Notes: generated by a model not told the origin, from the sequence alone. Numbered from the stretch's first letter, positions 16,584 to 45,014 are shown. The stretch is DNA of 64,000 nucleotides from an uncultured Hormoscilla sp. (GCA_963921275.4 OZ001293.3:4384001-4448000); one strand, 5' to 3'. A program made the numbers and translations.

Positions 16584-16671
16584 ATTGGAGTTTGGAGTAG
16601 GGGGGCATCAAGTTGTCTAATAGCATTTTGTCAAAATAATATTCTTAGTCGGTTTTAACCGACTTGAGCTT

Positions 16672-18189: not shown

Positions 18190-18254
18190 GAGTTGTTAAT
18201 TCTCTCATTCAAACATTCAAAATTCAGAATTAAATGGTGTTAAAAGGGTTTAAT

Positions 18255-20099: not shown

Positions 20100-20164
20100 T
20101 TCCGAATGGGCGATCCATAGGGGTGATATATTCGCCATAGCCTAGTAACATGGATAAACCAGGG

Positions 20165-20260
20165 GGAAGACGATAGATTATTATCTAATTTTGTCTGGTA
20201 CTGCATTGCTAAAAGTCTATGACTTGCTCCCTATCATAGATTGTTTTATTAAAAAAAACA
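20165..20260 (-). promoter_or_regulatory. Putative LysR (NdhR/CcmR) operator region upstream of ndhF3
   Basis: AT-rich region with ATAG-N8-CTAA at ~20173. ndhF3 operons are known CcmR targets. Imperfect match. Confidence 0.3.
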
Positions 20261-20432
20261 ACAAAATTGGCTTATATTCATGATTAAGGGATATAATGCT
20301 TAAGCTTGGGCGTTGGCGTAGCCGGTCAGCTACACTGAAAAGAAACCCGGTTTCTGGCCCCCGCGCTCACGCCCCCCGAACCCGACTAGAAGATGGAGAA
20401 CCTATATTGTCATGACTCAATTTCCCTAGGTT

Positions 20433-20771
20433 ATGAAATTACCCAAGGGCGATCGAGCCGAAATATCCATGCAAAAACTGGTTGGTTATTGCTTGAACCC
20501 AGAACATCATAGCGGCAAACATAAAGCTAGAGTATTCAAGTCCCGCTTGGGACTGGAAGCCGAAAATGCCGAGCAATTGCGAGAGCTTATCCAAAACACC
20601 GCGATTGCAGGGGAAGTTGTCAAGCAAGATACCACAGATTTTGGTATACAATATAAAGTGGATTGGGCTGTACCCGAAACTGATGGGGTTCAACTGCGGA
20701 CAATCCGGGAAATTACCCCAGAAAATGTAAATCCTCGTTTAGTATCTGCATTCATTAAGTCAAGAAGATGA
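20433..20771 (+). CDS. DUF6883-like protein
   Basis: KLVGYCLNPEHHSGKHKARVF...PRLVSAF; overlaps the start of a DUF4926 gene. Confidence 0.7.
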   Translation: MKLPKGDRAEISMQKLVGYCLNPEHHSGKHKARVFKSRLGLEAENAEQLRELIQNTAIAGEVVKQDTTDFGIQYKVDWAVPETDGVQLRTIREITPENVNPRLVSAFIKSRR

Positions 20772-21028
20772 AAAAATTTAACCTGTTGGACACAGTGGCG
20801 CTAATCAACTAAATTCCGAGATCGAGATTGACTTTAGTAGATGATGATTGCGAAGATATCGAAAGTTTACCGCCCGGGCAAGTAGGAACGATCGTTGAAG
20901 TCTACGATCGAGCAGAAGGTTGCCAATATTTGATCGAGTTTTCTGACCAAACAGGCTGTGAATATGCGATGGCAATCTTAAAAGCAGAAGAATTTTTAGT
21001 TCTGCATTATGAGTTAACTGCTGCTTAA
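20768..21028 (+). pseudogene. DUF4926 protein with an internal TAA at 20810-20812
   Basis: MKKFNLLDTVALIN*...LPPGQVGTIVEVY...YLIEFSD in a single frame. Confidence 0.75.
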
Positions 21029-21052
21029 TCAGGGGAGACGGCAATATCCCGG

Positions 21053-22363
21053 TTATTTGCTTTCCGAAAGAATGCTCAACTGCACGGCATCCCCGTGTTG
21101 TAAGGGTTTGCTACTGCGGACGACAAACCTTTCTCCTGGTTCTAAGCCAGATGTGATTAATGCTTGTCCGTCCGCCCGATCGCCGATAATTACCTTACGA
21201 GCAGAGGCTCGTGCAGTGTTTTCTACTCCACTGATTACAAATAAGGTGGCTACATTGCCTTCAAGGTCTGACAATGCTGTAGTACTGACAACTAATCCCT
21301 GACTATTTTGAGATGTAAAGCTTACTCGTGCTAGCAGTCCGCTGCCCAAACGCCCGTTAATATTAGGAATGGTAACTTCTACAGGCACCTGTCGCGCCAC
21401 AGGATCGGCGGCGGGGGAGATGCGAGTTACTCTACCAGGAAATTCTTGATGAGGAAATGCGTCTAGCTTGACTTGCACTGACTGTCCTATACTAATCTGA
21501 CCTAGCTGCAATTCAGAAATATTCACTACTACTTTCACTCGGCTGAAGTCCCCCAGCTTGACTATTTCATCACCTTCACGCACCAGGTTGCCCGGTTCGG
21601 TGACTTTGGCCAAGACAGTACCGGTAATAGGAGAAGTCAGTTCGGCATGAGACTGGCGTTCTTGTGTTTGCCTGAGCACTGCTTGTTGGGCGACAACGCG
21701 CTTGCGGGCCGCTGCGACAGCTTTTTTCTGGATGCTGACTTGTGCTTCTGCAGAACGCAGGATCTGTTGAGCGGCGCGAGCAGCAGTTTGGGCTAACTCG
21801 GCATCTTGTTGAGAAACTGCTCCTTCTTGGAAGAGGGTTTGCAGTCGCTGGGCATCAGCTATGAGCTGTTCTAATTCTACTCGCGCTTGTTCTACCCGCG
21901 CTTCCGCTTCTAAGACCTGGTTTCTGGCCCTAGCTATTTCTACTGCCCGTGCAGATAGTTCTGCTTGTGCCTCCATCACCTCCGCAACGGGAAGCGTATT
22001 ATCCAACTGGGCCAGAACTTGACCGCGAGTTACCTTGTCCCCCGCATCTACGCCGAGAAACAGCAGCTGTCCCTCCGTTCGCGATCGCACGGATACATGC
22101 TGTATCGGTTCCGTCGTACCATTAAACTCTAACCCTTGTCTCAGGGAGTCAGTGCGGGCGATCGCCACATCAACTGGTATCTTCGTTTTGCTAGACTCTG
22201 CCCTAGGGGGGTTATACCTTGCTTCTGCTTCTTGCTTGGGTATCCTGCCGCAACCCGCAGTCCCCATGAGAATTGCTACCAGGATTGCTTGCTGCCAAAG
22301 CTTGCCCTGAGGATAATTTTGTGCTCTCTTCGCCTGCGCATCGAATGGATCTAGTTGCCTCAT
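21053..22363 (-). CDS. RND efflux periplasmic adaptor (membrane fusion protein)
   Basis: Lipobox TAGC, biotinyl-lipoyl halves (VRSRTEG; SPITGTV), coiled coil, GRVTRISPAADP. Confidence 0.9.
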   Translation of the reverse strand: MRQLDPFDAQAKRAQNYPQGKLWQQAILVAILMGTAGCGRIPKQEAEARYNPPRAESSKTKIPVDVAIARTDSLRQGLEFNGTTEPIQHVSVRSRTEGQLLFLGVDAGDKVTRGQVLAQLDNTLPVAEVMEAQAELSARAVEIARARNQVLEAEARVEQARVELEQLIADAQRLQTLFQEGAVSQQDAELAQTAARAAQQILRSAEAQVSIQKKAVAAARKRVVAQQAVLRQTQERQSHAELTSPITGTVLAKVTEPGNLVREGDEIVKLGDFSRVKVVVNISELQLGQISIGQSVQVKLDAFPHQEFPGRVTRISPAADPVARQVPVEVTIPNINGRLGSGLLARVSFTSQNSQGLVVSTTALSDLEGNVATLFVISGVENTARASARKVIIGDRADGQALITSGLEPGERFVVRSSKPLQHGDAVQLSILSESK

Positions 22364-22705: not shown

Positions 22706-23132
22706 TTAGTCTTGACATATAATCTAGTATCATATAGAGGTTGACGTGGTTGGCAGCAAGTTATGGATTGTCCTGCGTTTTATCTCAGCCGCGAGTTGTA
22801 GAAGGGGCTGTGGGACTTGTTGGCGATCTTTTGTAACATGATGTACTTGGGAGTTAAAGGTTGAGAAAATGGGATTCAGTAAGCATACCCATCCTAGTTC
22901 GCGAGGGACAACAAGCTAACGGCTCAGCTCTTCCCCTCGCGAATGCGCTGCGCGCACGCTACGCGATCGGGAGATCTTGAGTCCTGAATTTCTGTCAAGC
23001 TTTGCCTATGCACCGGTGGTTGCCTGTGGGAGATACTGTTGCTGGTAACATTAATAATAGGCAGCACGCTACACGCTACGCTATTTTTCGATTCAGCCAA
23101 TATTTTTGGTAAAAATACTCATAAATGACGTA

Positions 23133-25795
23133 ATGAACGATTATCAAACTACTTCTCCTCTCAGGGTCAGCGGTAACGAGCCACTCCTCTTAGACGACCC
23201 CGATACTGTCTGGTTGATTCAGTCTGGTTCAATGGCAGTTTTTGCCGTGAGGGTCGTTGATGGCGTTCCCAAAGGAGCCCGTCGCTATTTGTTTAGCCTC
23301 ACAATTGATGAAGTCCTGTTTGGCATTGGTGGCCTTGGGGATACTCGATTCCTAGCCATTGCAGTTGCAGAAACTGCCCTCGTCCAATTGAGCTTAACAG
23401 ATTTAGTCGAGGGAGGACAATTAACTCACGTGCTTCATTGGCGCGATCGCCTCACCAACCTGTTCGCCCAGACAGATATATCTTTGACATTACCAGCATT
23501 TGAAAGGCTCGAAGATGCGAATAAACTCGCTTCTAATCTCAAGGAACTCCACAGAGAGTTTAGATCCAGTTTAGAGCAACTAGAACAACAGGAAAATGAA
23601 AATCAATTCAGCCAATTTCAAGAGCGCCAACGGCTCAATCAAAGGAGTATTAGAGGCGCAATTGGCGACCTGGTTTCGATCCTCAAGCCCAAACAGGGTC
23701 AATTGCTCCCAGAAGGAACGCCCTTACTAATTGCCGCAGGGGCTGTGGGACGGGCAATGGGGATTGAAATTCGTCCCCCCGCTCCTTCGGAAGATATGAA
23801 ACGGATCAAAAACCCCTTGGATGCGATCGCTCGCGCCTCTCGCATTTGTACCCGCCGCGTGCTCTTGAACGATGGCTGGTGGCGGACCGACTGCGGCCCT
23901 ATTTTAGCCTACAGGGAAGCGGACAATAGTCCTGTCGCCCTGCTGCCCGCAGGGCGGGGCAAGTATGAAATCTTTGACCCCTTACAACACAAGCGTTTTC
24001 CAGTTACTCCGGAGACAGTACGGCAGCTATATCCTTTTGCCTACACGTTCTACCGACCCTTTCCAGATAAAGAACTCAACGCCCTCGAACTCTTAAAGTT
24101 TTCCTTCCGAAGTCTAGGGCTAGATGTCATGATTATTTTGATCGTGGGCATCCTTGCTACTCTTCTGGGCATGATCTTTCCCCAAGCCACTGGCATAATT
24201 GTTGACAAGGTTATCCCGAGCTCCGATCGGGGGTTGCTATTCAAATCGGTTTCGGCTTGTTGGCAGCTAGTTTCGGCAAAGCTACCTTCGAGTTAGCTCA
24301 GGTATTTACTATTTTGAGGGTTCAAACCATCTCCAACTCCGCCAACCAAGCAGCACTCTGGGACCGGCTGCTGAAACTGCCCATTTCTTTCTTTCGCCAG
24401 TATACTACTGGTGACTTGCAAAACCGGGTTTCTGCAGTTAATCAGATTCGCCAAATCCTCGGCGGCACCGTCATGCGATCGCTGTTCAGCAGTTTTTTCT
24501 CCCTGCTGAATTTGGTTTTGATGCTTTATTACAGCATTAAGTTATCCTTGGCGGCAATGGCCATCGCCCTTGTCAATATTATCTTCACTACCATCTCGGG
24601 AATCCTCACTCACCAGAAAACGCGACCCCTGCAAAAAATCGCCGGGGAAATCTTTGGCTTGACCGTGCAGTTGCTCGGCGGCATTTCTAAACTGCGCATT
24701 GCTGGAGCGGAAAAGCGGGCCTTTGCCTACTGGACGAAACAATACAGCCAACAACTCTCCTTAATCTTAAGCACCGAACTCATTGAAGATGCGCTCAATA
24801 TCTTCAATACTGTATTGCCCACAATTAGCTCCATTATCATCTTTATCTTAGCCGTTAACTTAATCGCCGAGGCCCAGACTCAAGCAGAAGCCTGGCTATC
24901 GACTGGAACATTCCTCGTCTTTAACTCGGCCTTCGGAACCTTTCTCAGCGGTGTAACCAACCTGAGCAATACGATGATTGAAATTCTGGAGGTGACGATT
25001 CTCTGGGAACGCGCTCAACCGATTTTAGAAGCCAAACCAGAAACAGATCTCACTAAAGCAGATCCGGGACGACTTCGGGGTAATGTTAATCTCGCGGGAG
25101 TAACCTTCCGTTACCGAGAAAATGGTCCTCTTACCCTCAATCAGGTGACTGTTGAAGCCAAGGCTGGAGAATTTATCGCCCTCGTCGGTCCCTCAGGAAG
25201 CGGCAAATCTACCATTGTCCGCTTGCTGTTGGGTTTTGAAACTCCCGAAGACGGAACAGTTTACTACGACGGTCAGGATATCACCGGTTTAGATATCTCC
25301 GCCCTGCGGCGACAATTGGGAGTAGTCTTACAAAATGGTCGCATTAACAGCGGCTCAATTTTTGATAATATCGCCAGTAATGCATTGGTCACCATGGACG
25401 AGGTTTGGGAAGCCGCACTCCTGGCCGGATTTGCTGAAGATATCGAAAAAATGCCTATGGGCCTGCACACCGTTATCTCTGAAGGAGGCACCAATCTATC
25501 TGGGGGACAGCGACAGCGTTTGTTAATTGCTCGGGCCTTGGTTTTAAGACCAAAAATTATCATTTTTGACGAGGCTACCAGTTTCTTAGACAACCGCACT
25601 CAAGCTATTGTCACTCGGAGTTTAGAACCCTTGCAGGCAACTCGCATCGTTATTGCTCACCGCCTGAGTACTATTGCTAAGGCCGATCGCATCTATGTGA
25701 TTCAGGATGGTGTTGTCCTACAGCAAGAAACTTTTGACTAGCTGGCTTCTCAACCAGGACTTTTTGCTCAACTGATGGCTCGGCAGATGATGTAA
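23133..25795 (+). pseudogene. NHLP bacteriocin ABC transporter permease/ATPase (TIGR03797-like); frameshift ~24240 and TAG at 25739
   Basis: GPSGSGKS, LSGGQRQR, N-terminal cNMP-like domain and WWRTDCGPILAY. The frame continues LASQPGLFAQLMARQMM after the TAG. Confidence 0.9.
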
Positions 25796-25971
25796 TGGTT
25801 AGTGGGTTCTATAACAGGTAATATGCCTTCCATCGAAAATACTAATGCCCTAGACGATTCGGGCGGTTCGGGCGGTTCGGGCTGCTGTATCACATCAATG
25901 CCGAGATTCGCTATATCCCGTACACAGCAACGGGATTAGAAAATTGATAAAAATAAAGGAGGTAGACAACC

Positions 25972-26997
25972 GTGGAACAAACAATTGCCAAGTATCCTCA
26001 TTTTCAGGTCTTAAATGAAAGGGACATCGATTGGCTAGTCTCTCAAGGAAGGCAGGGAGAATGCCAGGCCGGGGAAATTCTGATTCAAGCCGGTCGCCAG
26101 GTAGAGTTCATACATATTTCTCTGTCGGGAACTTTGGCGGTTACAGCTTACCGTCAAGGAGAAGGAGAGCGGGAACTTAAAAAACTCTATGCTGGAGAAA
26201 TGATGGGAGAGATGTCTTTTTTAGATAATCAACTCCCCCCGACGACCATTAAAGTCCTAAAACAGTCTCGGGTGCTGTCCATTTCTAAGCAAGAACTAGG
26301 ACACAAGTTGGAACGGGACGAAGATTTTGCGACTCGCTTTTATCACCTGCTGGCTTTGAAACTATCTAACCAGTTGCGAGGACTGTCGGAATTATTGAGT
26401 CAAAATCAAGGGAGGGCAAGTCAACCTTTGCGCAAGGTACTACTGGTATTCGCGATTTTGCAGGATAGGGATATTGCTTGGGCGATCGCCAATGGGGTCT
26501 CCCAAAAGCTATCGGCGGGTACGGTGCTAATCCAGCAGGGCAAACCGGTCACGGCTGTGTATATATTACTGGAAGGAACCTTGGGTATCTATATTTCTCT
26601 GCCCCATGGGGGAGTAATGGCTGCTAAGGAAGTGGGACAATCGATGAAAGGGGAAATTCTTGGGGAAATGTCCTTTGTAGAAACGGGAACGGCTTCGGCA
26701 ACGGTAAAGGCGATCGCAGATTCTTGGTGCTTGGCAATTCCCCAAGCTAAATTGGCGTCTAAGTTGGCAGGAGACCTTCGAGGCGCTGCCAGGTTTTATC
26801 GCTCGATCGCCATCCTGATGTCCAACCGCTGGCGGGAACGCCTCTTCCGTCGCGGGTTTGCTACCCTCTATGAGGAGGGAAAACAAATGCTTTCTGAAGA
26901 CATAGAAGTAGAAGATGAACTGGATTTAGACACGATCGAAGGAACTGCTATTGCCGGCACTCGCTTCGATTGGATGATTAGACAGTTAAGTCGATGA
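25972..26997 (+). CDS. Bacteriocin-transport-associated tandem cyclic-nucleotide-binding protein (TIGR03896-like)
   Basis: Two cNMP domains (GEMMGEMSFL, GEILGEMSFV) and a DELDLD...AGTRFDWM tail. Confidence 0.85.
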   Translation: MEQTIAKYPHFQVLNERDIDWLVSQGRQGECQAGEILIQAGRQVEFIHISLSGTLAVTAYRQGEGERELKKLYAGEMMGEMSFLDNQLPPTTIKVLKQSRVLSISKQELGHKLERDEDFATRFYHLLALKLSNQLRGLSELLSQNQGRASQPLRKVLLVFAILQDRDIAWAIANGVSQKLSAGTVLIQQGKPVTAVYILLEGTLGIYISLPHGGVMAAKEVGQSMKGEILGEMSFVETGTASATVKAIADSWCLAIPQAKLASKLAGDLRGAARFYRSIAILMSNRWRERLFRRGFATLYEEGKQMLSEDIEVEDELDLDTIEGTAIAGTRFDWMIRQLSR

Positions 26998-27017
26998 TTG
27001 CGATCGAGGGAAAAGTC

Positions 27018-28640
27018 ATGTTTGGCCAGGATAAAAATGCAAAAAGGAATATTTTCCGCCAGGAATCCCTGGAACAACTCTCTTCACCAGAACGCTTGGA
27101 TCAGCTCATGCAGGCGATCGGCCCCAAGGACTGGCTGCCTTTAAAGGTGTTGGGAAGTCTAGTTTTCGCGGGATTGGTTTGGAGTATCTTCGGGCGCATT
27201 CCGATCGCCGTTGAAGGGCGAGGGATTCTTATCGATCCCCGTCGCGTCGCTAACTTGGAATCTCCTATTTCTGGTCAATTGTCCTCCTTAAATGTCCAAG
27301 CTGGTCAATGTGTTGCTCGGGACGAACTCCTGGCCACCATCGAACCTTCCGAATTGCGACAAAGGTTAAGGTCGGCCCAGAATCAAAAGACAGAATTACA
27401 ACGGCAATTCAATGAAACCACCATCCTTCTGTACCAAGGTGCTAACCTGGAAAAAGAGGCGATCGCCGCTTCCCAGGCCAGTATAGAGCAAAGCCTGCGG
27501 GACACCCGCTCCCTGACTCCCATTCTCAAAGATAAAGCCTTAAATTACCTTGCGGAACAACGCCGGAGTCTCCAACAACGCCTGGAGGATACCCAAGCAC
27601 TCACCCCCATTCTCAAAGACAAAGGTTTGGAGGCTATTGCCGAGCAACGGAATAGTCTCCAACAGCGCCTGGGTAATGCAAAAAAACTCTCGCCCATTTT
27701 GCGCGAAAGACTTGAAAAACGTCAGGCCCTGGCAGCAACAGGGGCGATCGAGCAAGATACCGTCCTGCAAGCAGAACAAGAATACATTGGCGCCCTGGAA
27801 AATATTGCTGACTTGGAAGCCGAACTGAAAAATCTGGATGTTCGGGAATCTGACGCCGAGCGACAATATCTGGAAAACCTCAGTCAGATTGGCAACCTCC
27901 AATCTCAACTCAAAGATTTAGATGTCAAAGAAGTAGAAGCGGAAAAGCAATATCTGGACAATCTTAATCGGATTAGCCAACTGGAAACCGAATTGCAAGA
28001 ATTAGAAACCAGGAAAAAGCGTTTGGAGCAAGAAAACCTCCAACAGCTCAACAGTAATAAAAATCAAATCCAGGAGGTAGAACGGGAGATTGCCCAACTG
28101 GAGCAACGGATTGCCGAGAACAGTAAAATTCTCAGTCCCAAGGCTGGCTGTATTTTAGAAATAACCGCTACCACCGGTCAGGTCGTCTCTCCAGGTACGC
28201 GCTTGGGGTCAATGAACATAGCGGGGAAAGAAAAAACCATCATGGGAGTCAGTTATTTTGCCATCTCTGACGGCAAGAAAATTGCCTTGGGAATGCCCAT
28301 TCAAATCACCCCTGACATTGTCAAGCGGCAGCGCTTCGGCGGGATTACCGGGACCGTTACTTCCATTTCCGAGTTTCCCGTCACCCAAGAAGGTGCAGCC
28401 ACGATTATCGGTAATCAGGAAGTCGTTAGTGGTTTAATTTCTGGGGGCGGCGTGATAGAAATTTGGGCCGAACTAGATGGGTCAGCCGACAGCTTCAGCG
28501 GTTACAAATGGTCTTCTTCCCAGGGACCCAAAATCAACATCACTCCCGGGACGACAACCACGGCCATAGTCCACGTAGAACAAAGGGCGCCGATTACTTT
28601 TGTCCTGCCAATTTTACGGGAGTGGACGGGCATATATTAG
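27018..28640 (+). CDS. NHLP bacteriocin secretion protein (HlyD family, TIGR03794-like)
   Basis: IFRQESLEQLSSPERLDQL, long coiled coil, GYKWSSSQGP, APITFVLP. Confidence 0.92.
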   Translation: MFGQDKNAKRNIFRQESLEQLSSPERLDQLMQAIGPKDWLPLKVLGSLVFAGLVWSIFGRIPIAVEGRGILIDPRRVANLESPISGQLSSLNVQAGQCVARDELLATIEPSELRQRLRSAQNQKTELQRQFNETTILLYQGANLEKEAIAASQASIEQSLRDTRSLTPILKDKALNYLAEQRRSLQQRLEDTQALTPILKDKGLEAIAEQRNSLQQRLGNAKKLSPILRERLEKRQALAATGAIEQDTVLQAEQEYIGALENIADLEAELKNLDVRESDAERQYLENLSQIGNLQSQLKDLDVKEVEAEKQYLDNLNRISQLETELQELETRKKRLEQENLQQLNSNKNQIQEVEREIAQLEQRIAENSKILSPKAGCILEITATTGQVVSPGTRLGSMNIAGKEKTIMGVSYFAISDGKKIALGMPIQITPDIVKRQRFGGITGTVTSISEFPVTQEGAATIIGNQEVVSGLISGGGVIEIWAELDGSADSFSGYKWSSSQGPKINITPGTTTTAIVHVEQRAPITFVLPILREWTGIY

Positions 28641-28693
28641 GCGGATCGCCTACCCGTCAATTTTGAAGAAATAATTTGTAATTGTCAGCAGTC

Positions 28694-30880
28694 ATGGCGA
28701 AAAAAAATCAGAAAGACACACCTCAAATTCCCAAGCGGGTTAAAACCCCAACCTTGCTACAAATGGAAGTAGTTGAGTGCGGTGCCGCTGCCTTGGGAAT
28801 TATTTTGGCTTACCACGGTCTGATCTTGCCATTACCAGAACTCCGCAGCAGTTGCGGGGTTTCTCGGGATGGTAGTAAAGCTGTAAATATGCTCAAGGCT
28901 GCCAGAAGCTACGGAATGCAAGCCAAGGGGTTTAAGAAAGATATCGACCAACTCCGGGAAATTCCCCCGTCCTTTATTGTTTTTTGGAATTTCAATCACT
29001 TCCTCGTGGTCGAAGGTTTTGTGGGAAACCGAATTTATTTGAACGACCCGGCCACGGGACCGCGAACTGTATCCTTTGAGGAATTTAATCGCGCCTATAC
29101 TGGCGTTGTTCTGATTTGTTCGCCGGGACCGGAGTTCAAAAAAGGAGGACGTAAACCCAGCATTATCGGCTCCCTCTACAGTCGCTTAAAAAACTCCTTG
29201 GGGATAATTTTGTATTGTATTTTGGCCGGTCTTCTCTTGGTCATCCCCGGGTTGGCCGTTGCTGTCTTCACCCAAGTCTTTGTCGATCGCATTCTGGTAG
29301 AAAATCGGATGAATTGGCTGCGTCCGTTGATTCTGGGCATGATCCTGACCGCGATCTTCCAATCCCTGTTAACATTTCTGCAATTTCGCTATCTAAGACA
29401 TTTGCAGATTAAGCTCTCAGTGGAGATGTCAACGGGCTTTCTCTGGCACCTGCTGCGCTTGCCCGCACGGTTTTATGCCCAACGGTTTCCTGGAGAAATT
29501 GGCGATCGCCTCCGCATTAATACTAAGGTAGCCAGCGTGCTTTCGGGTCAGTTAGCCACCACGGTTATTGATGCCGTGGTGGTGGTTTTTTACGCGGCTG
29601 TCATGTTTTCCTATGACTGGTTACTGACTTTAATCGGTCTATTCTTTTCGGGAATTAATGTCCTGCTCCTGCAGTGGGTGGGGCGGCTACGCAAAGATAC
29701 CTACATCCGCTTGAGCCAAGACCAGAGCAAGTTAGCGGGTGTCGGCATTGCGGCTCTGCAAAGTATAGAAACCCTCAAGTCGGCTACCCTAGAATCGGAT
29801 TTCTTTGCCCGTTGGGGTGGATATTACGCTAAAGTTAGCAATGCTCAACAGCAAATGGGAATTGTCAATCAGACCTTGGGAATTCTGCCCTCTCTGATTA
29901 CTTCCTTGACGACCCTATTTCTCCTTGTCGTTGGCGGCCTGCGGGTGATGAACGGTTATATCAGTATTGGCATGTTGGTGGCCTTTCAGAGCTTGATGCA
30001 AAGCTTTCAAAGGCCAGTTAATACCCTAGTCTCATTTGCCAGTACCCTTCAGGAGTTAGAAGGAGATCTCAATCGCTTAGACGACGTGCTCGACAATGAG
30101 GTGGATGGGCAGCTGGAACGGGAACCTCAGGATAGCAACTCGACCTTCTTTAAGCTGCAAGGGCATCTGGAGCTACGCAACCTCACCTTTGGCTATTCGC
30201 GGCTCGATTCGCCCTTAATTGAGAACTTCAATCTCTCCTTACAACCCGGACAGCGAGTCGCCTTGGTTAGGAGTAGCGGTTCGGGGAAATCAACTATTGC
30301 TAAGCTAGTGGTAGGGCTATATGAACCTTGGTCTGGGGAAATTCTTTTTGATGGCATCGACAGGGCTAAAATTCCACGGGAAGTATTGACTAATTCCCTG
30401 TCGATGGTGGAGCAAGAAATTTTCTGGTTCGGCGGTACGGTGCGGGATAATTTGACCCTGTGGGACGATACGATTCCTAAGGACCAGTTAATCCGCGCCT
30501 GCGAGGATGCGGCAATTTTGGATGCGGTTTGGGCCATTCCAGGGGGACTGGAGGGAAATTTGCTGGAAGGAGCGGCCAACATGAGCGGAGGACAACGTCA
30601 GCGATTGGAAATTGCCCGGGCCTTGGTTAACAATCCTTCGATCTTGGTGATGGACGAGGCCACTAGCGCTTTAGATGCGGAAATGGAGAAGATTATTGAC
30701 CAAAATTTACGGCGCCGGGGCTGTACTTGCCTGCTCGTGGCCCACCGGTTGAGTACGATTCGCGATTGCGACGAGATTATCGTCTTGGAACAGGGAAAGG
30801 TGGTGCAGCGGGGAACTCACGACCAGATGCGGGACGTGGAAGGCGCCTATGCTCGCTTGATTCAGTCTGAGTTCGGTTAA
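28694..30880 (+). CDS. NHLP bacteriocin C39 peptidase/ABC transporter (TIGR03796-like)
   Basis: QMEVVECGAA (catalytic Cys), WNFNHF, MSGGQRQR. Walker A reads RSSGSGKST. Confidence 0.93.
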   Translation: MAKKNQKDTPQIPKRVKTPTLLQMEVVECGAAALGIILAYHGLILPLPELRSSCGVSRDGSKAVNMLKAARSYGMQAKGFKKDIDQLREIPPSFIVFWNFNHFLVVEGFVGNRIYLNDPATGPRTVSFEEFNRAYTGVVLICSPGPEFKKGGRKPSIIGSLYSRLKNSLGIILYCILAGLLLVIPGLAVAVFTQVFVDRILVENRMNWLRPLILGMILTAIFQSLLTFLQFRYLRHLQIKLSVEMSTGFLWHLLRLPARFYAQRFPGEIGDRLRINTKVASVLSGQLATTVIDAVVVVFYAAVMFSYDWLLTLIGLFFSGINVLLLQWVGRLRKDTYIRLSQDQSKLAGVGIAALQSIETLKSATLESDFFARWGGYYAKVSNAQQQMGIVNQTLGILPSLITSLTTLFLLVVGGLRVMNGYISIGMLVAFQSLMQSFQRPVNTLVSFASTLQELEGDLNRLDDVLDNEVDGQLEREPQDSNSTFFKLQGHLELRNLTFGYSRLDSPLIENFNLSLQPGQRVALVRSSGSGKSTIAKLVVGLYEPWSGEILFDGIDRAKIPREVLTNSLSMVEQEIFWFGGTVRDNLTLWDDTIPKDQLIRACEDAAILDAVWAIPGGLEGNLLEGAANMSGGQRQRLEIARALVNNPSILVMDEATSALDAEMEKIIDQNLRRRGCTCLLVAHRLSTIRDCDEIIVLEQGKVVQRGTHDQMRDVEGAYARLIQSEFG

Positions 30881-30923
30881 TATGACGACAGCTTAAGTCC
30901 TGCCCTTAATATCGGCACTCTCT

Positions 30924-31015
30924 GCGCGACTCTGCGTTAAAGTCGCGCGACTCTGCGTTAAAGTCGCGCAACTCTGCGTTAAAGTCGCGCGACTCTGCGT
31001 TAAAGTCGCGCGACT
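30924..31015. repeat. 21-bp tandem repeat, ~4.4 copies
   Basis: GCGCGACTCTGCGTTAAAGTC head to tail. Confidence 0.92.
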
Positions 31016-31361
31016 TTGCCATAGAATCACGTGACTAATTTCTCAATCAATGTGACTTTAATCTAGATATGTAGCCCGCTGGCGCGGGCCCTCTCGACTT
31101 TGAAAAGGTTTGAGCAGGAACTTCTAGAGATGGGAGTCAAGGAACTGATTTAAGTAGATCCCCTCAGGGAAAAATTAGCAGATTGCGGTGAAGTAGTTAT
31201 TAGGGGAGTTACCTTCCCCGCCAGCCCCCAAGCAAGGGAAAAAGTAAAAAGAGGAAAGAAAATGATTCCAGAACTAGCGAAGCAACTATGTCTGTCAAAA
31301 AACGTCCGAATAGGGGGTGATGGAGGTGAAAAAAAAGTAGAAAGTAAAAGGAGGAAAGAAA

Positions 31362-32225
31362 ATAATTCCCGAACTAGTGAAGCAACAAGGGAACTTGATT
31401 TCCTTGGCCTGGAAGGATGAGGCATTCAAGCAAGTCCTTCTAAGCAATCCCTCTGAGGCGATCGCCTCAGAGTTGGGCATCTCTATCCCCCCAGGGACGG
31501 CGGTGCAGGTGCTGGAGGAAAAGGCCAACAGCCGCACGGTAGTCATCCCCCGGGAAGCCATAGGGCCAGAGAAACTGGAGCAGGTGAAAAGCCAGTGGGC
31601 AGAAGGGGAACTGTATCAGATAGCCAAGCTACTAGCTAGGGCGCAAGGAGAGGCGAAGTTCAAGGCATTCAGGCAAGTCCTTCTAAGCAATCCCAAAGAG
31701 GCGATCGCCTCAGAGTTGGGCATCTCTATCCCCCCAGGGACGACGGTGCAGGTGCTGGAGGAAAAGGCCAACAGCCGCACGGTAGTCATCCCCCGGGAAG
31801 CCATAGGGCCAGAGAAACTGGAGCAGGTGAAAAGCCAGTGGGGAGAAGGGGAACCGTATCAGATAGCTTCGCTGCTGGCCAGGGCGCAAGGAGAGGCGAA
31901 GTTCAAGCAGTTCCTGCTGTCCAGCCCCAAGCAGGCTATATCTAAGGCCCTGGGGACGGAACTCCCCCAGGATCTGGAAATTACCATGGTTTCCTCACAA
32001 CTGGATACGGAGTATATTATCCTGCCAGCTAAACCGGAAGGAGACCTGGAGGAACTGTCGGATGAAGAGTTGATGGCTGTTGCTGGGGGGAGCGAATTGA
32101 TTAAGATTACCATAGTGGGATCTGCTTCGGTATGTCTGTCGGCAGCGCTGTCGGTACTGCTGTTGGGGAGCGCTGTCGGTACTGCTGTTGGGGCAATCAC
32201 ATTCACTACCACAACCAATTGGTAG
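31362..32225 (+). CDS. NHLP-family RiPP precursor 1 (three leader modules; 44-aa core at 32091-32222)
   Basis: AWKDEAFKQVLLSNP repeats and the ELSDEELMAVAGG cleavage motif. The homologous start codon is ATA at 31362; alternative GTG at 31377. Confidence 0.88.
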   Translation: MIPELVKQQGNLISLAWKDEAFKQVLLSNPSEAIASELGISIPPGTAVQVLEEKANSRTVVIPREAIGPEKLEQVKSQWAEGELYQIAKLLARAQGEAKFKAFRQVLLSNPKEAIASELGISIPPGTTVQVLEEKANSRTVVIPREAIGPEKLEQVKSQWGEGEPYQIASLLARAQGEAKFKQFLLSSPKQAISKALGTELPQDLEITMVSSQLDTEYIILPAKPEGDLEELSDEELMAVAGGSELIKITIVGSASVCLSAALSVLLLGSAVGTAVGAITFTTTTNW

Positions 32226-32522
32226 ACGAGTTTGCTGGTACAGGGTAAGGACATGGGAAATTTTTCTTGCCCTTGCCCTGTTTGCTGAGGGAGGAAAACT
32301 CGGGCAGAAATCTGGCAGGGGGGAGTTTTCCCCCTCGTTATTGCCCTATAGTACTTTCCGCAGCGGAAAAGCGGAAACCATTGATTATAGGGCTCGGGGG
32401 ACTTGCCGGGATGAGAAAGTTGCAGTTATTATCGGGAATAGGGGTGCTTCCAGAAGAGGTGGTTATTAGGGGGTGACCTTCACCGCTTCCAAGCAAGGGA
32501 AAAGGTAAAAAGAGGAAAGAAA

Positions 32523-33122
32523 ATGATTCCAGAACTAGCGAGGCAACGAGGGAATTTGATTTCCAAGGCATGGAGGGATGAGGCATTCAGGCAGGTCTTT
32601 CTAAGCAATCCCAAAGAGGCGATCGCCTCAGAGTTGGGCATCTCTATCCCCCCAGGGACGACGGTGCAGGTGCTGGAGGAAAAGGCCAACAGCCGCACGG
32701 TAGTCATCCCCCGGGAAGCCATAGGGCCAGAGAAACTGGAGCAGGTGAAAAGCCAGTGGGGAGAAGGGGAACCGTACCAGATAGCCAAGCTACTAGCTAG
32801 GGCGCAAGGAGAGGCGAAGTTCAAGCAGGAACTGCTGTCTAGCCCCAAGCAGGTTATATCTAAGGCCCTGGGGACGAAACTCCCCCAGGATCTGGAGATC
32901 GCCATGGTTTCCTCACAATCGGATACGGAGTATATTATCCTGTCAGCTAAACCGGAAAAAGACCTGGAGGAACTGTCGGATGAAGAGTTGATGGCTGTTG
33001 CTGGGGGGAGCGAATTGATTAAGATTACCATATTGGCACTTACTATTATCAATATCGGCAGCGCTGTCGGTATTGCTGTTGGGGTTGGGGCAATCGCATC
33101 ATCTACCACAACCAATTGGTAG
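32523..33122 (+). CDS. NHLP-family RiPP precursor 2 (two leader modules; 37-aa core at 33009-33119)
   Basis: ISKAWRDEAFRQVFLSNPK, ELSDEELMAVAGG, and an AGAGGA RBS upstream of the ATG. Confidence 0.92.
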   Translation: MIPELARQRGNLISKAWRDEAFRQVFLSNPKEAIASELGISIPPGTTVQVLEEKANSRTVVIPREAIGPEKLEQVKSQWGEGEPYQIAKLLARAQGEAKFKQELLSSPKQVISKALGTKLPQDLEIAMVSSQSDTEYIILSAKPEKDLEELSDEELMAVAGGSELIKITILALTIINIGSAVGIAVGVGAIASSTTTNW

Positions 33123-33424
33123 ACGAGTTTGCTGGTACAGGGTAAGGACATGGGAAATTTTTCTTGCCCTTGCCCTGTTTACTGAGGGAGGAAAACTCGG
33201 GCAGAAATCTGGCAGGGGAGAGTTTTCCCCCTCGTTATTGCCCTATAGTACTTTCCGCAGCGGAAAAGCGGAAACCATTGATTATAGGGCTCGGGGGACT
33301 TGCCGAGAAAAGAAAATTGCAGTTATCATCGGGAAATAGGGTACTTCCAGGTAAAGTAGTTATCACTAATGCGCGATCGAACTCGGTTCCCCCAAACTGC
33401 CGTTTATTGCCCTTGCGTGAGACG

Positions 33425-34305
33425 ATGATTCCTACCTTAGCAGAGGCGGTTTTAGCCGTCAGCCCTTACATCCCTGCTAAACTGATTTCCGGGAAAAACC
33501 TCCGGCATATGAGAGCGATCGCATCTCACCTGCCGGGGGCGATCGCCAGTTTTTGGGGATTTGAATGTCGCCTGGGAGAAGAAGCGCCCCTTGGGGACTT
33601 TCTCATATCCGTTAAAGCTGATGAAGGTCGGGTGATCGTTGCAGGGACCCACGATAGTATAGAATTATCGGAGTCCCTGAAAACAAATCCAGTGTGGAAC
33701 CTAGGGTGCAAGTTCAGCCAGCATTGGGCGGATTCAACCTCTCCTATTTATGAGAAAGTAGATAACATGTGGTTGGAGTTCGATGTGGATGGGGAACCTC
33801 CTGCCATTCCCATCCCCAGCTTGTTCTTTGGTTGCAGTCCCACCCAAGTGGAAAATACAGGCATCACCTTGGCCAAGGCCGAACCGTCCTCTCATGAATG
33901 GGTAACGGAAACGGCATTAAAAATCCTCCTGGGGGATAGTTTGTCTGGGGAGATAGTACAAAAATTACGGCAATGCTTGGGGGCATTACCCCCAGAGGCA
34001 TATGTTTTTCAAATTGGGCTCATGCTTGCCAGAAAAGCCGAGACAATCAGACTCTGTATTCGCAACATTTCCCCTCAAAATATTATCCTCTATCTGGAGA
34101 AAATCGGCTGGACTGGTGCAATTGACCTTCTGCAAGGGACAGTATCGGAACTCGCCAGTTTTACAGACCGCATCGACCTAGATTTAGATGTGGGTAATGC
34201 CGTGTTGCCGAAAATCGGTTTAGAATGCTATATTGAAGGGCAACCTCGCAGCGAACCGAAATGGCTGGCATTTTTGTCCTATCTGGTAGAGGGGGGTTTG
34301 TGCTA
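33425..34305 (+). pseudogene. Putative RiPP-modifying enzyme (possibly aromatic prenyltransferase-like), 3'-truncated by IS607
   Basis: Protein-like from MIPTLAE through FWGFECRLG, NMWLEFD, QIGLMLAR, LDLDVG..PKIGLECY to VEGGLC, then runs into IS left-end sequence. Function is inferred. Confidence 0.55.
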
Positions 34306-35450
34306 CAAACCCGGGCCGCTTATCAACCAGCGAAATCGTCATAATCTTACCTTTTCTCTACCAACCAGTTTCGACCACACCCCAACCCTCAACCCTCCGC
34401 CCCCCACAAGCCCGTTAACAGCCTCGCCTTGGGAATTAGATCCGATACAGAAACTGACAATGTGCAAAAGAGCAGTCACGGAGTTGCGACTAAGTGCCCG
34501 AAAACCTACACATCTCTCACGCTTTGACGATAATTCAGTATCGTCGGGATTATTATCGGTAGCAAAACATTCTACTATTTCCGTATTATCGCGCTTTCCG
34601 GCAGGTCGGATTGTGTCTGTAATAAAGCTAATAAAGCTAATGCATTTAGCAAAAAACGAGCATTGGCTGCTCGCGAATAAATGAAACATGAGTATTATAG
34701 CCCAGCCCAAGCAGCTAACCTTTTGGGAGTGCATCCAGAGTCCGGAAGAAGGTGGGAAAGAGAAGGAAAAATCACGTCGTACAGGACGCCGAGTGGGCAG
34801 CGCCGCTTCCTCAAAAGGGAAATCGAGGGATTGCTCCTCATCGGGTTGCCAACTACAACTGTTTGTTATGCAAGGGTCTCAAGCTATTCCCAACGTGAAG
34901 ATGCAAGAGCCGACAACTTGAATACCTGCGCCTTCACTATCCAGAGGCGGAGTTCATTTCTGAAATTGGAGGGGGGCTTAATTTTAAGCGGCGGAAGTTC
35001 AAAGCCATTTTGGAACGAATTGTCGAGCAGGATATCCAGCGGCTTGTCGTTGCCCACCGCGACAGACTCTGCCGATTTGGATGGGAACTGGTTGAGTGGT
35101 TATGCAAATACAATGCAGTCCAACTCGTGGTTCTCAATGAACAACAACTCAGTCCAGAGCAAGAGCTTGTTCAGGATATGCTGTCCATCATCCATTGCTT
35201 CAGTTCTCGGCTCTACGGTCTCCGAAAGTACAGAAAAGAAATCAGCTCGAAAGTACGGGAAGAATCAATTCAAGAAAAGCCGGAATGTTCAGCCGAACAG
35301 TGTCCGAAAAATCCCGTTATTTCCCGATCGGGAACTTCACGCTATTTGGAAGCAATGACTAGCTGCTTATCGCTGGGTTTATAATCAGTGCGTTGAATTT
35401 TACAATAAGGGTCGCTCTCTGGCACCCAAGCAGTCGTTAGACCAAATCGA
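34305..35450 (+). mobile_element. Degenerate, right-truncated IS607 element (frameshifted tnpA at 34681-35384; tnpB stub)
   Basis: MerR-like HTH, CYARVSS, HRDRLCRFG, FSSRLYGLRKY; tnpB start KIPLFPD...WKQ*LAAYRWVYNQ. Confidence 0.88.
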
Positions 35451-36132
35451 ACTGCCTTTTTAGCTGCCGAAAAGCATTGTAAATCTCTTCTTCATAATAA
35501 CTGCAAAAATCAATATTTCTCCCAATTGTAAATCTCTTCTTCATAATGACTGCAAAAATCAATATTTCTCCCAAAGTTCTCTGCCTGGAGATATAGTTTA
35601 TAGCCGCCCTTCTTGGCCATATCGATAAAAGCCTTTTCCACCTGTAAGATCCGCCGATTACTCGCCCCGTCTCCCGTGCACATTCTGGACATGACTCCAA
35701 TGACCAGAAACGGTTCCGCTTGGGGATAGACCAAAGGCGGGTTGAACTGGAAGAAACGAATGAAATAATAATATCCCATGGGCGCGGCATTAAAAAAGGG
35801 ACCGGCCCATTCACCACCTTCAGGGATTATCTCATGGGGGTGAGCTTTGACGAACCTATAAAGGTCGATCCAGGCTTTCATTAACTCCTTTTGAGAAACT
35901 AATAAGCTGAACCCAAAAAGATTATTTTGCTTGCCATTTTTGGGAGGCCGATCGTTCTCTTTCGGATCGTCGGTTTGCCGCTTGACTATTTTCCCGGATG
36001 CACCCAGGAGCAACTCGCCCTTTTGGGGCAAGGAAACGCCGTTAAAGGTTCGGAAACTATTTCGATGCCTAAATCTGAAAATAACTCCTCCAGGGCCCTA
36101 TTGTCTGCTGGTATTAGCTCCTTCATTTGCAT
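35437..36132 (-). pseudogene. FAD-linked oxidase C-terminal-like protein, disrupted
   Basis: KLYLQ...SHYEEEIYNAFRQLKRQFD resembles the FAD-oxidase/cytokinin dehydrogenase C-terminus. Frameshift at ~36035, a 49-bp tandem duplication (35476/35525), and cut by IS607. Confidence 0.5.
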
Positions 36133-36135
36133 ACC

Positions 36136-37530
36136 TCAATCCAACCAGTGTAACCGATCTGGCGAAGGAACGAGATTGCCTTCTATAGCAGGTAAAGATT
36201 CCACCTGTTCCATCTGGGCGATCGCTGCGGTCAAGAGCATTTTCCCATTCAGCTGGCGTAGGGACTCAACCGAGGACATATTTTTGGGTAGGGGGCGTTT
36301 TTCGCGAATCAGACGATCTACATTTTGCTCGAATGGTTCCAAGCTAAAACTATTCGTATCTCTGAGCCATTTCCGCATCCAGGCATGGTAAGTCGGGCGT
36401 TCTTTTTTCATGTCATAAAGCCCTGACAACAATTGATAGAACCTGCTATACTCCAAGCGATAGCGCAGTTCAAATTCATGCAAGCAAACAGCTTCATCTA
36501 TCTCGCCCCGCAAAGTCGTGTTAATCGAGCGGGCGGCCAACAGGGCGCCATAGGTTGCCAAATGTACCCCCGAGGAAAACAGCACATCGATAAAGCAGGC
36601 AGCATCGCCAACCAGGAGAATACCTGGCTTCCAGAAATGGGAATGGCAGTAGGAAAATTCCTGACGCATGCGAATTTCCCCATAGGGAATTTCCCTTGCT
36701 GGCTGGGCCCCTGCCAAATATTCTGATATAATCGGACAAGCTGCAATATAATCTTGCAGAGTTCCGGCCAAATTTCCTCGATTCTCTTTGAGCTTGCCAG
36801 TCCGTTCTTCGGGCAATACAGCACCAACGCTAGTGAGAGTATCGTCAAGGGGGATGTACCACAACCACCCATCGTCAAATGCTTCAAATAGAACGTTTCC
36901 GCTGTCTGGTTGGGGCAGGCGTTTGCCGTTAACAAAATAGCCGTATATAGCGATATTGCGATAGAACTGGGAGTAGAGGCGATCGCCTACCTGCTGGGCC
37001 ATTTTGCTTTGATGTCCCGAAGCATCTACCACAAAACGGGCCGTTGCCCTTTCTTCACGACCGTTCCCATCGCCGAACACAACTCCCGTTACCCGATCGC
37101 CCGACCAAACCAAATTTTTCACTCGGTGTTGTTCGCGGACATCAACGCCCTTTTCTCTAGCATTATCCAGCAGAATGCGATCAAACTCCGCCCGTTTCAC
37201 TTGGTAGGCGTAGACTCTGCTATAGTCATTGGGGTCTCCTACAACTAGAGAGCTGCCAAAATTGAGAGTCCAAGCACCTGTTTCCTTGCCCCAAGAAAAA
37301 GTCCCACCCCTTTTCTTGATAAAACCCGCCTGCTTGACTGAGTCGCCAACACCAAGTAACTGCACAATACCATTGATTGTCGCTGGTAATAGGGACTCGC
37401 CAATTTGATAACGAGGGAAGCGTTCCCGTTCCAGCAAAAGCACCTTATGCCCCTGCATGGCTACCAGAGTGGCCGCTGTTGACCCTGCCGGTCCGCCTCC
37501 GATCGCAATCATATCGTATTCTTTGTCCAT
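36136..37530 (-). CDS. Flavin-dependent halogenase (CndH/VhaA-like phenolic type)
   Basis: GGGPAG, FPRYQIGESLLP, KRGGTFSWG (catalytic Lys region), WLWYIP, GDAACF..FSSGVHLA. Confidence 0.92.
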   Translation of the reverse strand: MDKEYDMIAIGGGPAGSTAATLVAMQGHKVLLLERERFPRYQIGESLLPATINGIVQLLGVGDSVKQAGFIKKRGGTFSWGKETGAWTLNFGSSLVVGDPNDYSRVYAYQVKRAEFDRILLDNAREKGVDVREQHRVKNLVWSGDRVTGVVFGDGNGREERATARFVVDASGHQSKMAQQVGDRLYSQFYRNIAIYGYFVNGKRLPQPDSGNVLFEAFDDGWLWYIPLDDTLTSVGAVLPEERTGKLKENRGNLAGTLQDYIAACPIISEYLAGAQPAREIPYGEIRMRQEFSYCHSHFWKPGILLVGDAACFIDVLFSSGVHLATYGALLAARSINTTLRGEIDEAVCLHEFELRYRLEYSRFYQLLSGLYDMKKERPTYHAWMRKWLRDTNSFSLEPFEQNVDRLIREKRPLPKNMSSVESLRQLNGKMLLTAAIAQMEQVESLPAIEGNLVPSPDRLHWLD

Positions 37531-43813: not shown

Positions 43814-45014
43814 TTAACCCGAAAAAATCTTGTAATTGCCGGAAATTTCTGAGTATGGCACAATCTGGAATGAAGCTATCAGGCCAGATGCGGAGGTATC
43901 TCTCAAAGCCTTCAACAAAATGTTGAAAGCGCCATTAATATCACGACTAATAGTGTGACCACATGAGGGACAAATAAATCGTTTGTTGCCTCCTAACTTT
44001 ATGTGAATGTGCCCACATTTTGAGCAAGTTTTGCTGGTGTACTCTTCCGTCACGTCTACTACAACACAGCCGTATTTAGCTGCTTGATGCTTGAACGTTT
44101 GCTTAAAACGGTAATGAGACCATGTAACCATTTTACGTGCTGTCTTAGTTGACAACCGTCGCTTGCCTCGTTTGACCATATTTTTAACCTCAAATGTAGG
44201 CAAAAATATGACTTTGTACTTGGTGCATAGATAGTTGGCTGCTTTCTTATGCAGTTCATCAACCAAGTTACGAATCTTAACCCGAATCTTTTGTGCCGCC
44301 TTTCGCAGGCAGTGCCGTAGCCGCTTAAATTGGCGTCCTTTAGATAAGCCGATTCGAGACATTAGCCGATCGAGATGACTGGCTAACCGATAGATACGAC
44401 CCATATCAGACTTGCCAACCTCCCAAATTTCTTGACCGTCAAACCCAGTTAGAAATGTCCTGACACCTGGATCAAGGGCGATGGCTAGCTCACTGTTTAA
44501 TGGTTCCAGTTTAGGCACGTCTATGGCATAACAGATAAACCAACGTCCTCTGTCTAGTACCAATGTAGGCTCATGGTGCATTTTGTCTATAATTGGCTCA
44601 CTTGCTTTGAACCTTAATCCTTTGGTCTGTGTTGGATAAAAATTTCCTTTTTTCCAGTTATTTTTCTGAAACCGGATAGACTTAACAGATTCACGTACTG
44701 AGCGAAATTTAGCATCTCCTCCTGATTTTCTTGCTGCTTTGTGTGCCTCATAAGCCTGAAATACCGCCAATTGGCGTGGGCTATATGGGGTTTGACTTAC
44801 CCAAGATGGAGCCATATCTATGACCGTTTTGCGTAGGTCATATTTACCAATCTTCTGATTTTTGAGTATAGCAATGGCTTGATTGAAGCACCATCTGGCT
44901 GCTGATATCCATTGAAACCAGGTTTTAGCTAATGCCGTTTCTGGGTAAACTCGAATCTTCTTTGATAGCAGATTTGTACTTCCTGAGTCCATAGAGTCTG
45001 CAACTGAAGACATG
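43814..45014 (-). CDS. tnpB: IS607 TnpB RNA-guided endonuclease (start uncertain; ORF open to 45505)
   Basis: KKIRVYP, IALDPGVR, EEYTSKTCSKCG...CPSCG, RDINGAFNI. Confidence 0.92.

Follow-up and report, generated by a model that had tools for sequence, protein, structure and literature searches.

Probable remnant of a RiPP gene cluster with tryptophan-ended NHLP precursors and an ABBA prenyltransferase-like gene in an uncultured Hormoscilla sp.

The window, i.e. the whole 64 kb stretch of DNA from an uncultured Hormoscilla sp. that was analysed, includes at positions 23106-37530 a gene cluster that is probably what is left of a pathway for a peptide that is made on the ribosome and modified after translation (RiPP). 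An earlier note, made from the sequence alone, had reported here a four-gene NHLP export module, two precursors with a double-glycine site, an unassigned gene directly 3' of them, and a convergent flavin halogenase with an oxidase fragment. All of these were recovered: the export families TIGR03797, TIGR03896, TIGR03794 and TIGR03796 follow one another in this order on the + strand, both precursors match the leader family TIGR03793 above its cut-off and carry ELSDEELMAVAGG before the core, the gene 3' of them has no match in Pfam or NCBIfam, and the halogenase and the oxidase fragment lie on the minus strand. For comparison, one genome per species was scanned for relatives of the unassigned gene, which gave 105 relatives; 80 loci were kept, among them L001, the syntenic locus of Hormoscilla sp. 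GUM202.

The first gene of the export module, for the permease/ATPase ABC2 (23106-25741, + strand), is a pseudogene in two frames. Positions 1-181 of TIGR03797 are matched in 23106-24296 (193.7 bits) and positions 182-669 in 24257-25741 (734 bits; cut-off 709.4), and the gene is short of one T in a T run near 24240 as compared with L001. It is followed on the same strand by a gene for a bacteriocin-type transport-associated protein with two cyclic-nucleotide (cNMP)-binding domains (25972-26997; PF00027 twice), which matches TIGR03896 over model positions 1-317 of 317 with 292.7 bits (cut-off 161), and by a gene for an NHLP-system HlyD-family secretion adaptor (26994-28640), which matches TIGR03794 over model positions 2-420 of 421 with 354.1 bits (cut-off 156). 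The last gene encodes ABC1, a C39 peptidase/permease/ATPase (28682-30880, + strand; TIGR03796, 1125 bits, cut-off 853; Peptidase_C39, 4.2e-33). ABC1 is full length, but its Walker A motif is aberrant and reads RSSGSGKST, with Arg530 in place of the Gly found in 39/39 Walker A motifs of ABC homologues from the 80 loci. As judged by this comparison, a point change to Arg530 may have inactivated a C39 exporter that is full length in other respects. The module is like the NHLP/Nif11 bacteriocin export systems (TIGR03793-03797, TIGR03896) in that all four transport families and the leader family are found above curated cut-offs, with the exception of the split ABC2, and differs from them in the frameshifted ABC2, the aberrant Walker A motif of ABC1, and leaders with two or three NHLP domains.

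Precursor 1 (31377-32225, + strand; 282 aa) has three tandem NHLP domains and a 44-aa core, and Precursor 2 (32523-33122, + strand; 199 aa) has two NHLP domains and a 37-aa core; they match TIGR03793 (curated cut-off 50.9) with 146.3 bits in three stretches and 115 bits in two stretches, respectively. In both, ELSDEELMAVAGG (...MAVAGG) is followed by the cut site and a core of the form SELIK…TTTNW. The cores are hydrophobic (grand average of hydropathy 1.25 and 1.23 for cores 1 and 2), rich in Gly, Ala, Val, Ile, Ser and Thr, and resemble membrane helices. Cys occurs once in core 1 and not at all in core 2, and Trp is the sole electron-rich aromatic residue. Both precursor genes look intact. 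As judged by its repeats, the precursor array (31228-33363) is a recent tandem duplication: 300-nt repeats of the NHLP domain at 31420, 31663 and 32581 and 280-nt repeats of the 3' flank at 32187 and 33084 show 82-95% identity, and the remnant of a duplicated precursor start (31228-31420, + strand) is marked by repeat family D3, found at 31228, 31328 and 32489, and holds a dead 52-aa open reading frame (ORF) at 31262-31420, the translation of which meets a stop. Leaders with two NHLP domains are seen too in the cyanobacterial proteins P0123-P0129; in the protein collection P0121-P0129 are labelled PF27793.1, an accession absent from the Pfam copy searched. Identical short GC-rich hairpins, terminator-like by consensus scan only, lie at 32318-32333 and 33215-33230 (+ strand), ~90 bp past each precursor stop and inside the duplicated flank.

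The gene 3' of the precursors lies in an ORF spanning 33164-34684 (+ strand), has its likely start at 33425 and is truncated at its 3' end. Its product is 87% identical to residues 1-294 of the 358-aa P0002 from Hormoscilla sp. GUM202, its nearest relative; the homology covers the first ~293 residues and ends at 34303. As compared with the Hormoscilla locus, ~250 bp at the 3' end are exchanged for ~75 bp of scrambled sequence. The lost part comprises the nearly invariant HHIK and AKAY strands, which are the last two strands of the barrel described below, and the ~65-90 C-terminal residues concerned were found nowhere in the window.

In a word-indexed search with 8000 candidates scored, 251 relatives of this protein were obtained at E<=0.001, most of them ~380 aa long, cyanobacterial and without a Pfam label. 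A 20-member profile retrieved 3907 cluster representatives (50% identity) at E<=1e-3 among 1.84 billion, 3135 at 1e-10 and 1554 at 1e-30. The AlphaFold2 model of an intact relative, P0003, rather than of the window's copy (predicted local distance difference test, pLDDT, 86; predicted template modelling score, pTM, 0.86) has alternating helix pairs and strand pairs. Foldseek against the Protein Data Bank (PDB) gave 43 matches at E<=1e-3, and all those listed are ABBA aromatic prenyltransferases, the best being PriB (5jxm; 5.2e-5, TM 0.49/0.52). The matches include AmbP1, NphB/Orf2, EpzP, IptA, DMATS1, AnaPT, CdpNPT, TleC, and 5- and 6-DMATS, and many of them (IptA, DMATS1, 5- and 6-DMATS, TleC) use indole or Trp; in the protein atlas, no more than weak leads (0.87-0.88) pointed to Trp_DMAT and PTase_Orf2 clusters. 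By its model, the family has the fold of the ABBA (PT-barrel) superfamily. Conserved residues in every other position of the strands (Arg, Lys, His and Tyr) would be compatible with prenyl-diphosphate binding; among the conserved residues of P0003 are Arg232, Arg238, Lys292, His358, Lys360, Lys372 and Tyr374.

Downstream, in 34681-35384 (+ strand), lies the gene of an IS607-family serine-recombinase transposase in two frames, with NF033518 positions 2-70 in 34681-35358 and 112-186 in 35010-35384, and with Pfam matches to MerR helix-turn-helix and Resolvase. It is followed on the minus strand by a pseudogene (35446-36126) of an oxidase linked to flavin adenine dinucleotide (FAD), which retains residues 1-28, 66-88 and 218-387 of the 424-aa L001 oxidase and has lost the FAD-binding part (PF01565, residues 43-178); the oxidase of GUM202 is intact (424 aa, FAD_binding_4). 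The adjoining flavin-dependent halogenase gene (36136-37530, minus strand; 464 aa; PF04820, 2e-49) is apparently intact, and its product is 94% identical to the L001 orthologue. The halogenase is CndH-like, with 468.9 bits and E 1.4e-139 against CndH (PDB 3e1t; residues 4-400), followed by CmlS and pyrrole/phenol halogenases, and it matches MibH (5uao) in a short stretch with 20.7 bits and E 1.3e-3. An SrpI-type halogenase was therefore rejected, because MibH, the hook by which SrpI was found (PMC12615548, in the part of the text available), scores only 20.7 bits.

The decay suspected in the earlier note goes further than was recognised there and is evident from the ABC2 frameshift, the Arg in the ABC1 Walker A motif, and the truncation of both the prenyltransferase-like gene and the oxidase gene. 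The IS607 transposase gene is itself broken, and insertion sequence (IS) elements lie between genes of the cluster. In GUM202, ABC2 is broken at another place, and the counterpart of window 25856-33419, with the cNMP protein, HlyD, ABC1 and both precursors, is absent, IS630-like genes being found instead; the IS630-like and IS4-like genes of that syntenic locus stand at places other than those of the window's mobile elements. Judging from these lesions, the pathway is most likely dead in this genome.

The 80 loci belong to Cyanobacteriota (47), Actinomycetota (12), Acidobacteriota (5), Bacteroidota (4), Chloroflexota (3), Pseudomonadota (3), Spirochaetota (1) and Deferribacterota (1), the phylum being not given for four. 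Genes within ±8 kb of the enzyme were clustered in all of them, and LanM was counted by tblastn; in the clustering, LanM proteins were merged with the prenyltransferase-like family through fusions of the two, and no claim is therefore made on paralogues of the latter. ABC1/C39 homologues are present in 33/80 loci by tblastn and C39/ABC transporters in 28/80 by clustering, NHLP precursors in 22-23/80 (21/80 in the clustering), Nif11 precursors in 23/80 (clustering), and LanM in 34/80. Two metallo-beta-lactamase-fold families occur in 20 and 19 loci, 2-oxoglutarate (2OG) oxygenases in 19, DUF7005 in 17, Zn-dependent alcohol dehydrogenases (Zn-ADH) in 14, JmjC in 9, YcaO in 8, radical-SAM in 8 with B12-radical-SAM in a further 5, and WelO5-like proteins in 5. 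In Terriglobia, Chloroflexota, Bacteroidota and Pseudomonadota, precursors homologous to those of the window adjoin the enzyme, and LanM or YcaO is present as well. The prenyltransferase-like domain is also found fused to LanM, methyltransferase (PF05050), Asp/Asn beta-hydroxylase and Zn-ADH (P0135, 1357 aa; P0080, P0130, P0144), and cyanobacteria commonly have ~575-aa proteins in which it is joined to a 2OG-Fe(II) oxygenase.

The association of the family with terpene cyclases takes two forms. A squalene-hopene cyclase (SHC) domain (PF13243) stands behind the prenyltransferase-like domain in 8/18 long homologues (670-2000 aa), one is fused to LanM, and the window's fragment aligns to the N-terminal domain of one such fusion, P0134, with 29% identity and E 9e-42. 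In 37/80 loci, a ~600-aa gene without a Pfam match comes directly 3' of the enzyme, in the same orientation and with a median gap of 57 bp; such neighbours are spread over loci L003-L072 (for example, L052 4828-6627). In the model of this neighbour (pLDDT 90.6), a beta-rich domain at the N-terminus precedes an alpha/alpha barrel like that of class II terpene cyclases, and the barrel matches the SHC-like single-domain 8pak (6.8e-9), MstE (6.6e-8), drimenol and drimenyl-diphosphate synthases, ent-copalyl-diphosphate synthase and SHC (6.8e-9 to 1e-4). As the prenyltransferase-like domain is fused or adjacent to cyclases, an isoprenoid on the substrate is indicated, and the family is likely to be one of RiPP prenyltransferases. 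The view of the enzyme as an orphan of unknown kind is hence abandoned, given its ABBA prenyltransferase fold, the fused or adjacent class II terpene cyclases of its relatives, and its fit to NctPC as described in the available part of the publication discussed below.

The C-terminal Trp, which the earlier note had singled out as conserved, proved to be the one invariant residue of the core, and whether it is present goes with the clade to which the adjacent enzyme belongs. Precursor 2 aligns with W-terminated precursors from five phyla, and in an alignment of 14 precursors the terminal W is the only invariant core column. NHLP-type cores ending in W were found in Terriglobia, in metagenome-assembled genomes (MAGs) of Anaerolineae, Saprospiraceae and Rhodoferax, in locus L049 and in the window, and they share GG followed by (T/S)E... 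and a hydrophobic stretch. In total, 104 ORFs with a double-glycine leader were identified in 52/80 loci, and 48 of them, from 29 loci, end in W, as compared with 55/1070 of all non-overlapping ORFs, those precursors included; the Trp-terminus counts are inflated by the relatedness of the loci. Nif11-type cores mostly end in ...KW, with Lys as the penultimate residue in 28/48 W-ended cores. The Nif11-leader precursors beside the enzyme in loci L002-L034 end in a conserved ...[I/P/A]KW.

In the enzyme tree, made with FastTree only, a clade of 40 rows (39 loci and the window) holds both the window's copy and the orthologue from Hormoscilla. Within this clade, precursors ending in W are present in 24/26 loci that have precursors (25/27 with the window), whereas outside it they are present in 2/22, and the W state needs four changes on the tree over 50 labelled rows. 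A literature search for Nif11/NHLP families in which a C-terminal Trp is conserved led to PalQ, SrpI, MppC and reviews, none of which describes precursors ending in ...KW or in a hydrophobic stretch with W. A rule of this kind is not stated in the literature searched, but the original NctPC publication, or a review of 2026 from the same first author, may state it.

No LanM, YcaO or radical-SAM gene was found in the 64 kb, including 24 other ORFs of at least 150 aa. A tblastn search of the window with LanM, YcaO, radical-SAM and cyclase queries gave no match better than E 0.02, and in the window no remnants of LanM, YcaO, radical-SAM, TfuA, cyclase-like, metallo-beta-lactamase-fold, 2OG oxygenase, DUF7005 or JmjC genes were detected beyond chance. 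Membership in the class II lanthipeptides was rejected, there being no LanM in the window at E<=0.05 and only one and zero Cys in the cores. The absence of a canonical maturase from the window, as seen in the earlier note, thus stands, but the new maturase-free subtype that it proposed is weakened, because LanM, YcaO or radical-SAM is present in 16/20 clade loci covered by at least 8 kb on both sides (the exceptions being L001, L016, L026 and L044); the note had itself named the regular presence of such genes in intact loci as speaking against the subtype, and this is largely what was found. For the absence here, loss is a better explanation than a class that works without maturases, and any LanM, YcaO or cyclase partner was most likely lost in this genome.

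Taken together, the cluster is probably the decayed remnant of a RiPP pathway, the ancestor of which would have prenylated a C-terminal Trp by a leader-guided ABBA enzyme before tailoring, cleavage at the GG site and export. In such a pathway, the NHLP-leader precursors would present a hydrophobic, transmembrane-helix-like core with Trp as its last residue, and the ABBA enzyme, guided by the leader, would prenylate this Trp. The CndH-like, FADH2-dependent halogenase and the FAD-linked oxidase would probably tailor the same Trp further, the C39 domain of ABC1 would cut after the GG site, and ABC1, ABC2 and HlyD would export a lipidated, presumably membrane-active peptide.

The cluster fits a recently described kind of RiPP system, and it is compared here with four published systems as presented in the available parts of the cited papers. 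NctPC, as described in a 2026 review (PMC13290415), is an ABBA-fold prenyltransferase fused to an MstE-like cyclase; it geranylgeranylates Trp, and cyclisation of the prenyl group follows. Enzymes of this type are treated also in PMC13647313 and in a remark in PMC12715784. The window's family resembles it, by published description and not by sequence, in the fold, in the fusion or adjacency of relatives to an MstE-like class II terpene cyclase, and also in the proposed Trp acceptor, the occurrence in cyanobacteria and the LanM context of many relatives. In contrast, the window, L001 and L049 have neither cyclase nor LanM and instead have a CndH-like halogenase and an FAD oxidase, and a further difference lies in precursors with NHLP leaders, in tandem in the window, and with long hydrophobic cores. 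The primary description of NctPC is reportedly that of Hubrich et al. (Chem 2024).

MppC from the mpp cluster of Moorena producens is a leader-dependent ABBA prenyltransferase acting on Trp of a Nif11 lanthipeptide (PMC12715784). Like the enzyme proposed here, it is a soluble ABBA-type enzyme that alkylates the indole of a Trp in a RiPP and depends on a leader that is long and structured (Nif11); unlike it, MppC has as its target an internal Trp in a heptapeptide core cyclised by LanM and is described within the cyanobactin prenyltransferase family, whereas the window's family matches no model. PalQ attaches a prenyl group to the Trp at the C-terminus of an NHLP precursor (PMC10853753), and the PalQ/PalX system is similar in its NHLP-type precursor with a conserved C-terminal Trp and in the prenylation, proposed for the window, of this residue, with strict dependence on the C-terminal position. 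However, PalX has a short 8-residue core encoded in a three-gene cluster with a histidine kinase, and PalQ has the all-helical trans-isoprenyl-diphosphate-synthase fold; this fold was rejected for the window's family, the model of which is an ABBA barrel.

SrpI brominates the C-terminal Trp of an NHLP precursor in a leader-dependent manner (PMC10858898). The SrpI/SrpE system of sponge microbiomes shares with the window the NHLP precursor, the C-terminal Trp (the window cores end in W) and a flavin-dependent halogenase, as well as the sponge-symbiont setting, the window's nearest genome being Hormoscilla. It differs in the MibH-hooked halogenase, as opposed to the CndH-like enzyme of the window, and in the short SrpE core LCCCW with YcaO-made thiazolines, YcaO being absent from the window. 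The available parts of a barettin/halogenase preprint and of a peptide-arginase paper had no bearing on the window.

A link between the halogenase and the peptide system, as drawn in the earlier note, is found again in an independent genome. In L049, a 59% GC MAG contig labelled uncultured Klebsiella (label unchecked), a RiPP operon within 6399-21036 has genes for JmjC, an arginase-family protein, an NHLP precursor ending in ...RRW, the prenyltransferase-like protein, a halogenase-FAD-oxidase fusion, TfuA and YcaO, all in the same orientation; from the prenyltransferase-like gene onward, the stop of one gene overlaps the start of the next. The halogenase of the window is 46% identical to the halogenase half of the fusion over 459 aligned positions, and the oxidase fragment, too, has a homologue there. 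The fusion argues that both enzymes work together, and the operon argues that halogenase and oxidase belong to such a RiPP pathway. Further on in L049, after YcaO, genes for a second flavoprotein (opposite strand), a cNMP protein and HlyD are found.

Several findings weigh against the proposed pathway and have to be considered together with the alternatives that they favour. The halogenase sits in a clade whose known substrates are phenol, pyrrole or carrier-bound ones, and its nearest matches are CndH and CmlS and not the peptide halogenase MibH; it is convergent, with IS607 debris between it and the prenyltransferase-like gene; and a halogenase accompanies the latter in only 3/80 loci, namely the syntenic L001, L049 and, with a weak match, L070. 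These features would be expected if the halogenase and oxidase were a separate degraded small-molecule pathway, placed by IS-mediated rearrangement and not acting on the peptide. In view of the L049 operon, and with Trp as the sole electron-rich aromatic residue of the window's cores, this explanation is considered somewhat unlikely.

The assignment of the enzyme as a prenyltransferase is opposed by the lack of any matching prenyltransferase model, as Pfam gave no match at E<=5 for 20 family members, NCBIfam gave no prenyltransferase match for the window's copy, and a PDB profile search with the family gave no prenyltransferase but four chance-level matches (E 0.32-1.3). The Foldseek matches have moderate TM-scores (0.34-0.50) at E ~1e-4 to 1e-5. 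In addition, the unusual invariant residues of the family include several Cys, Glu and Asp that could not be placed on known diphosphate or Mg sites, and other chemistry in the same fold is therefore possible. The ABBA-fold protein might thus act on the C-terminal Trp in another alkylation, in a cyclisation, or as a non-catalytic peptide-binding partner, and its fusions to 2OG oxygenases, methyltransferase, ADH, beta-hydroxylase and LanM would suit a generic substrate-binding module. Nevertheless, with cyclases fused or adjacent as described above, prenyltransferases alone among the structural matches listed at E<=1e-3, and a fit to the available description of NctPC (PMC13290415), such an action on the Trp in place of prenyl transfer appears quite unlikely.

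To the same side of the balance belong the lack of a polyprenyl-diphosphate synthase among the window ORFs and the lack of a cyclase gene in the window, none being seen in L001 or L049 either. NctPC and MppC were likened to the window's family by their published descriptions. The 40-row clade has a local support of 91 and is not strongly supported, three tree rows on one long branch are LanM fragments brought in by the clustering, and two clade loci, L053 and L080, both on short contigs, have precursors of which none ends in W.

Finally, the precursors might be bacteriocin-like peptides of class II (double-glycine) that stay unmodified and for which a C39 ABC exporter is enough, with the downstream enzymes as unrelated neighbours, but this is very unlikely. 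The two cores match Bacteriocin_IIc (PF10439) weakly, with 24.0 and 17.6 bits, and membership was rejected because both scores are below the gathering score of 27.1. Although these matches, the membrane-helix-like cores and a window without maturase would suit such peptides, the terminal Trp co-varies with the enzyme clade, homologous precursors adjoin the enzyme together with LanM or YcaO in other taxa, and the exporter is damaged here.

The remainder of the window consists of ordinary cyanobacterial genes (ChpXY, NdhD/F-type subunits, GUN4). Three large repeat-protein genes, for FG-GAP/RTX, DUF4347 with leucine-rich repeats, and cadherin/He_PIG/RTX proteins, lie at 5177-10065 (+ strand). A second HlyD-family gene (21053-22363, minus strand) and a TolC-like OEP gene (54163-55899, minus strand) may, as judged by their families, have a role in a type I secretion system. 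Mobile-element genes are found at 43814-45505 (minus strand), 56122-56601 (minus strand) and 34681-35384 (+ strand), including a TnpB/Cas12f-like gene, a DDE transposase fragment and the broken IS607 tnpA, and are consistent with an IS-rich, pseudogene-rich genome. A group II intron domain (Rfam RF00029) was identified at 147-224 (+ strand) with 47 bits (gathering score 40). Promoter/terminator, Rfam and tRNA scans of the window added nothing to the cluster finding.

What is still unusual is a halogenase-oxidase pair with no cyclase, NHLP leaders in tandem, an unannotated family of such a size and the apparent C-terminal-Trp rule. It is tempting, but doubtful, to regard the window, GUM202 and L049 as a separate branch of isoprenoid RiPPs, in which an ABBA prenyltransferase and a CndH-type halogenase-FAD-oxidase pair, with neither cyclase nor LanM, cap the C-terminal Trp of a transmembrane-helix-like peptide, and to take the C-terminal Trp (often ...KW) as the recognition and acceptor rule for a clade of a family with 3900 representatives and no database model. 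If such a branch exists, its halogenated, oxidised prenyl-indole lipid anchor would be one not yet described for any RiPP.

As the cluster is a probable remnant, the biosynthetic inventory of the symbiont should not list it among the producing pathways. The analysis names an unannotated family, which has 3907 representatives at 50% identity but is covered by no model in Pfam or NCBIfam, and provides for one of its clades a simple, testable substrate rule, i.e. that the precursor ends in Trp. Lipidation and halogenation of a C-terminal Trp are wanted for peptide engineering, and SrpI, PalQ and MppC are under development to that end.

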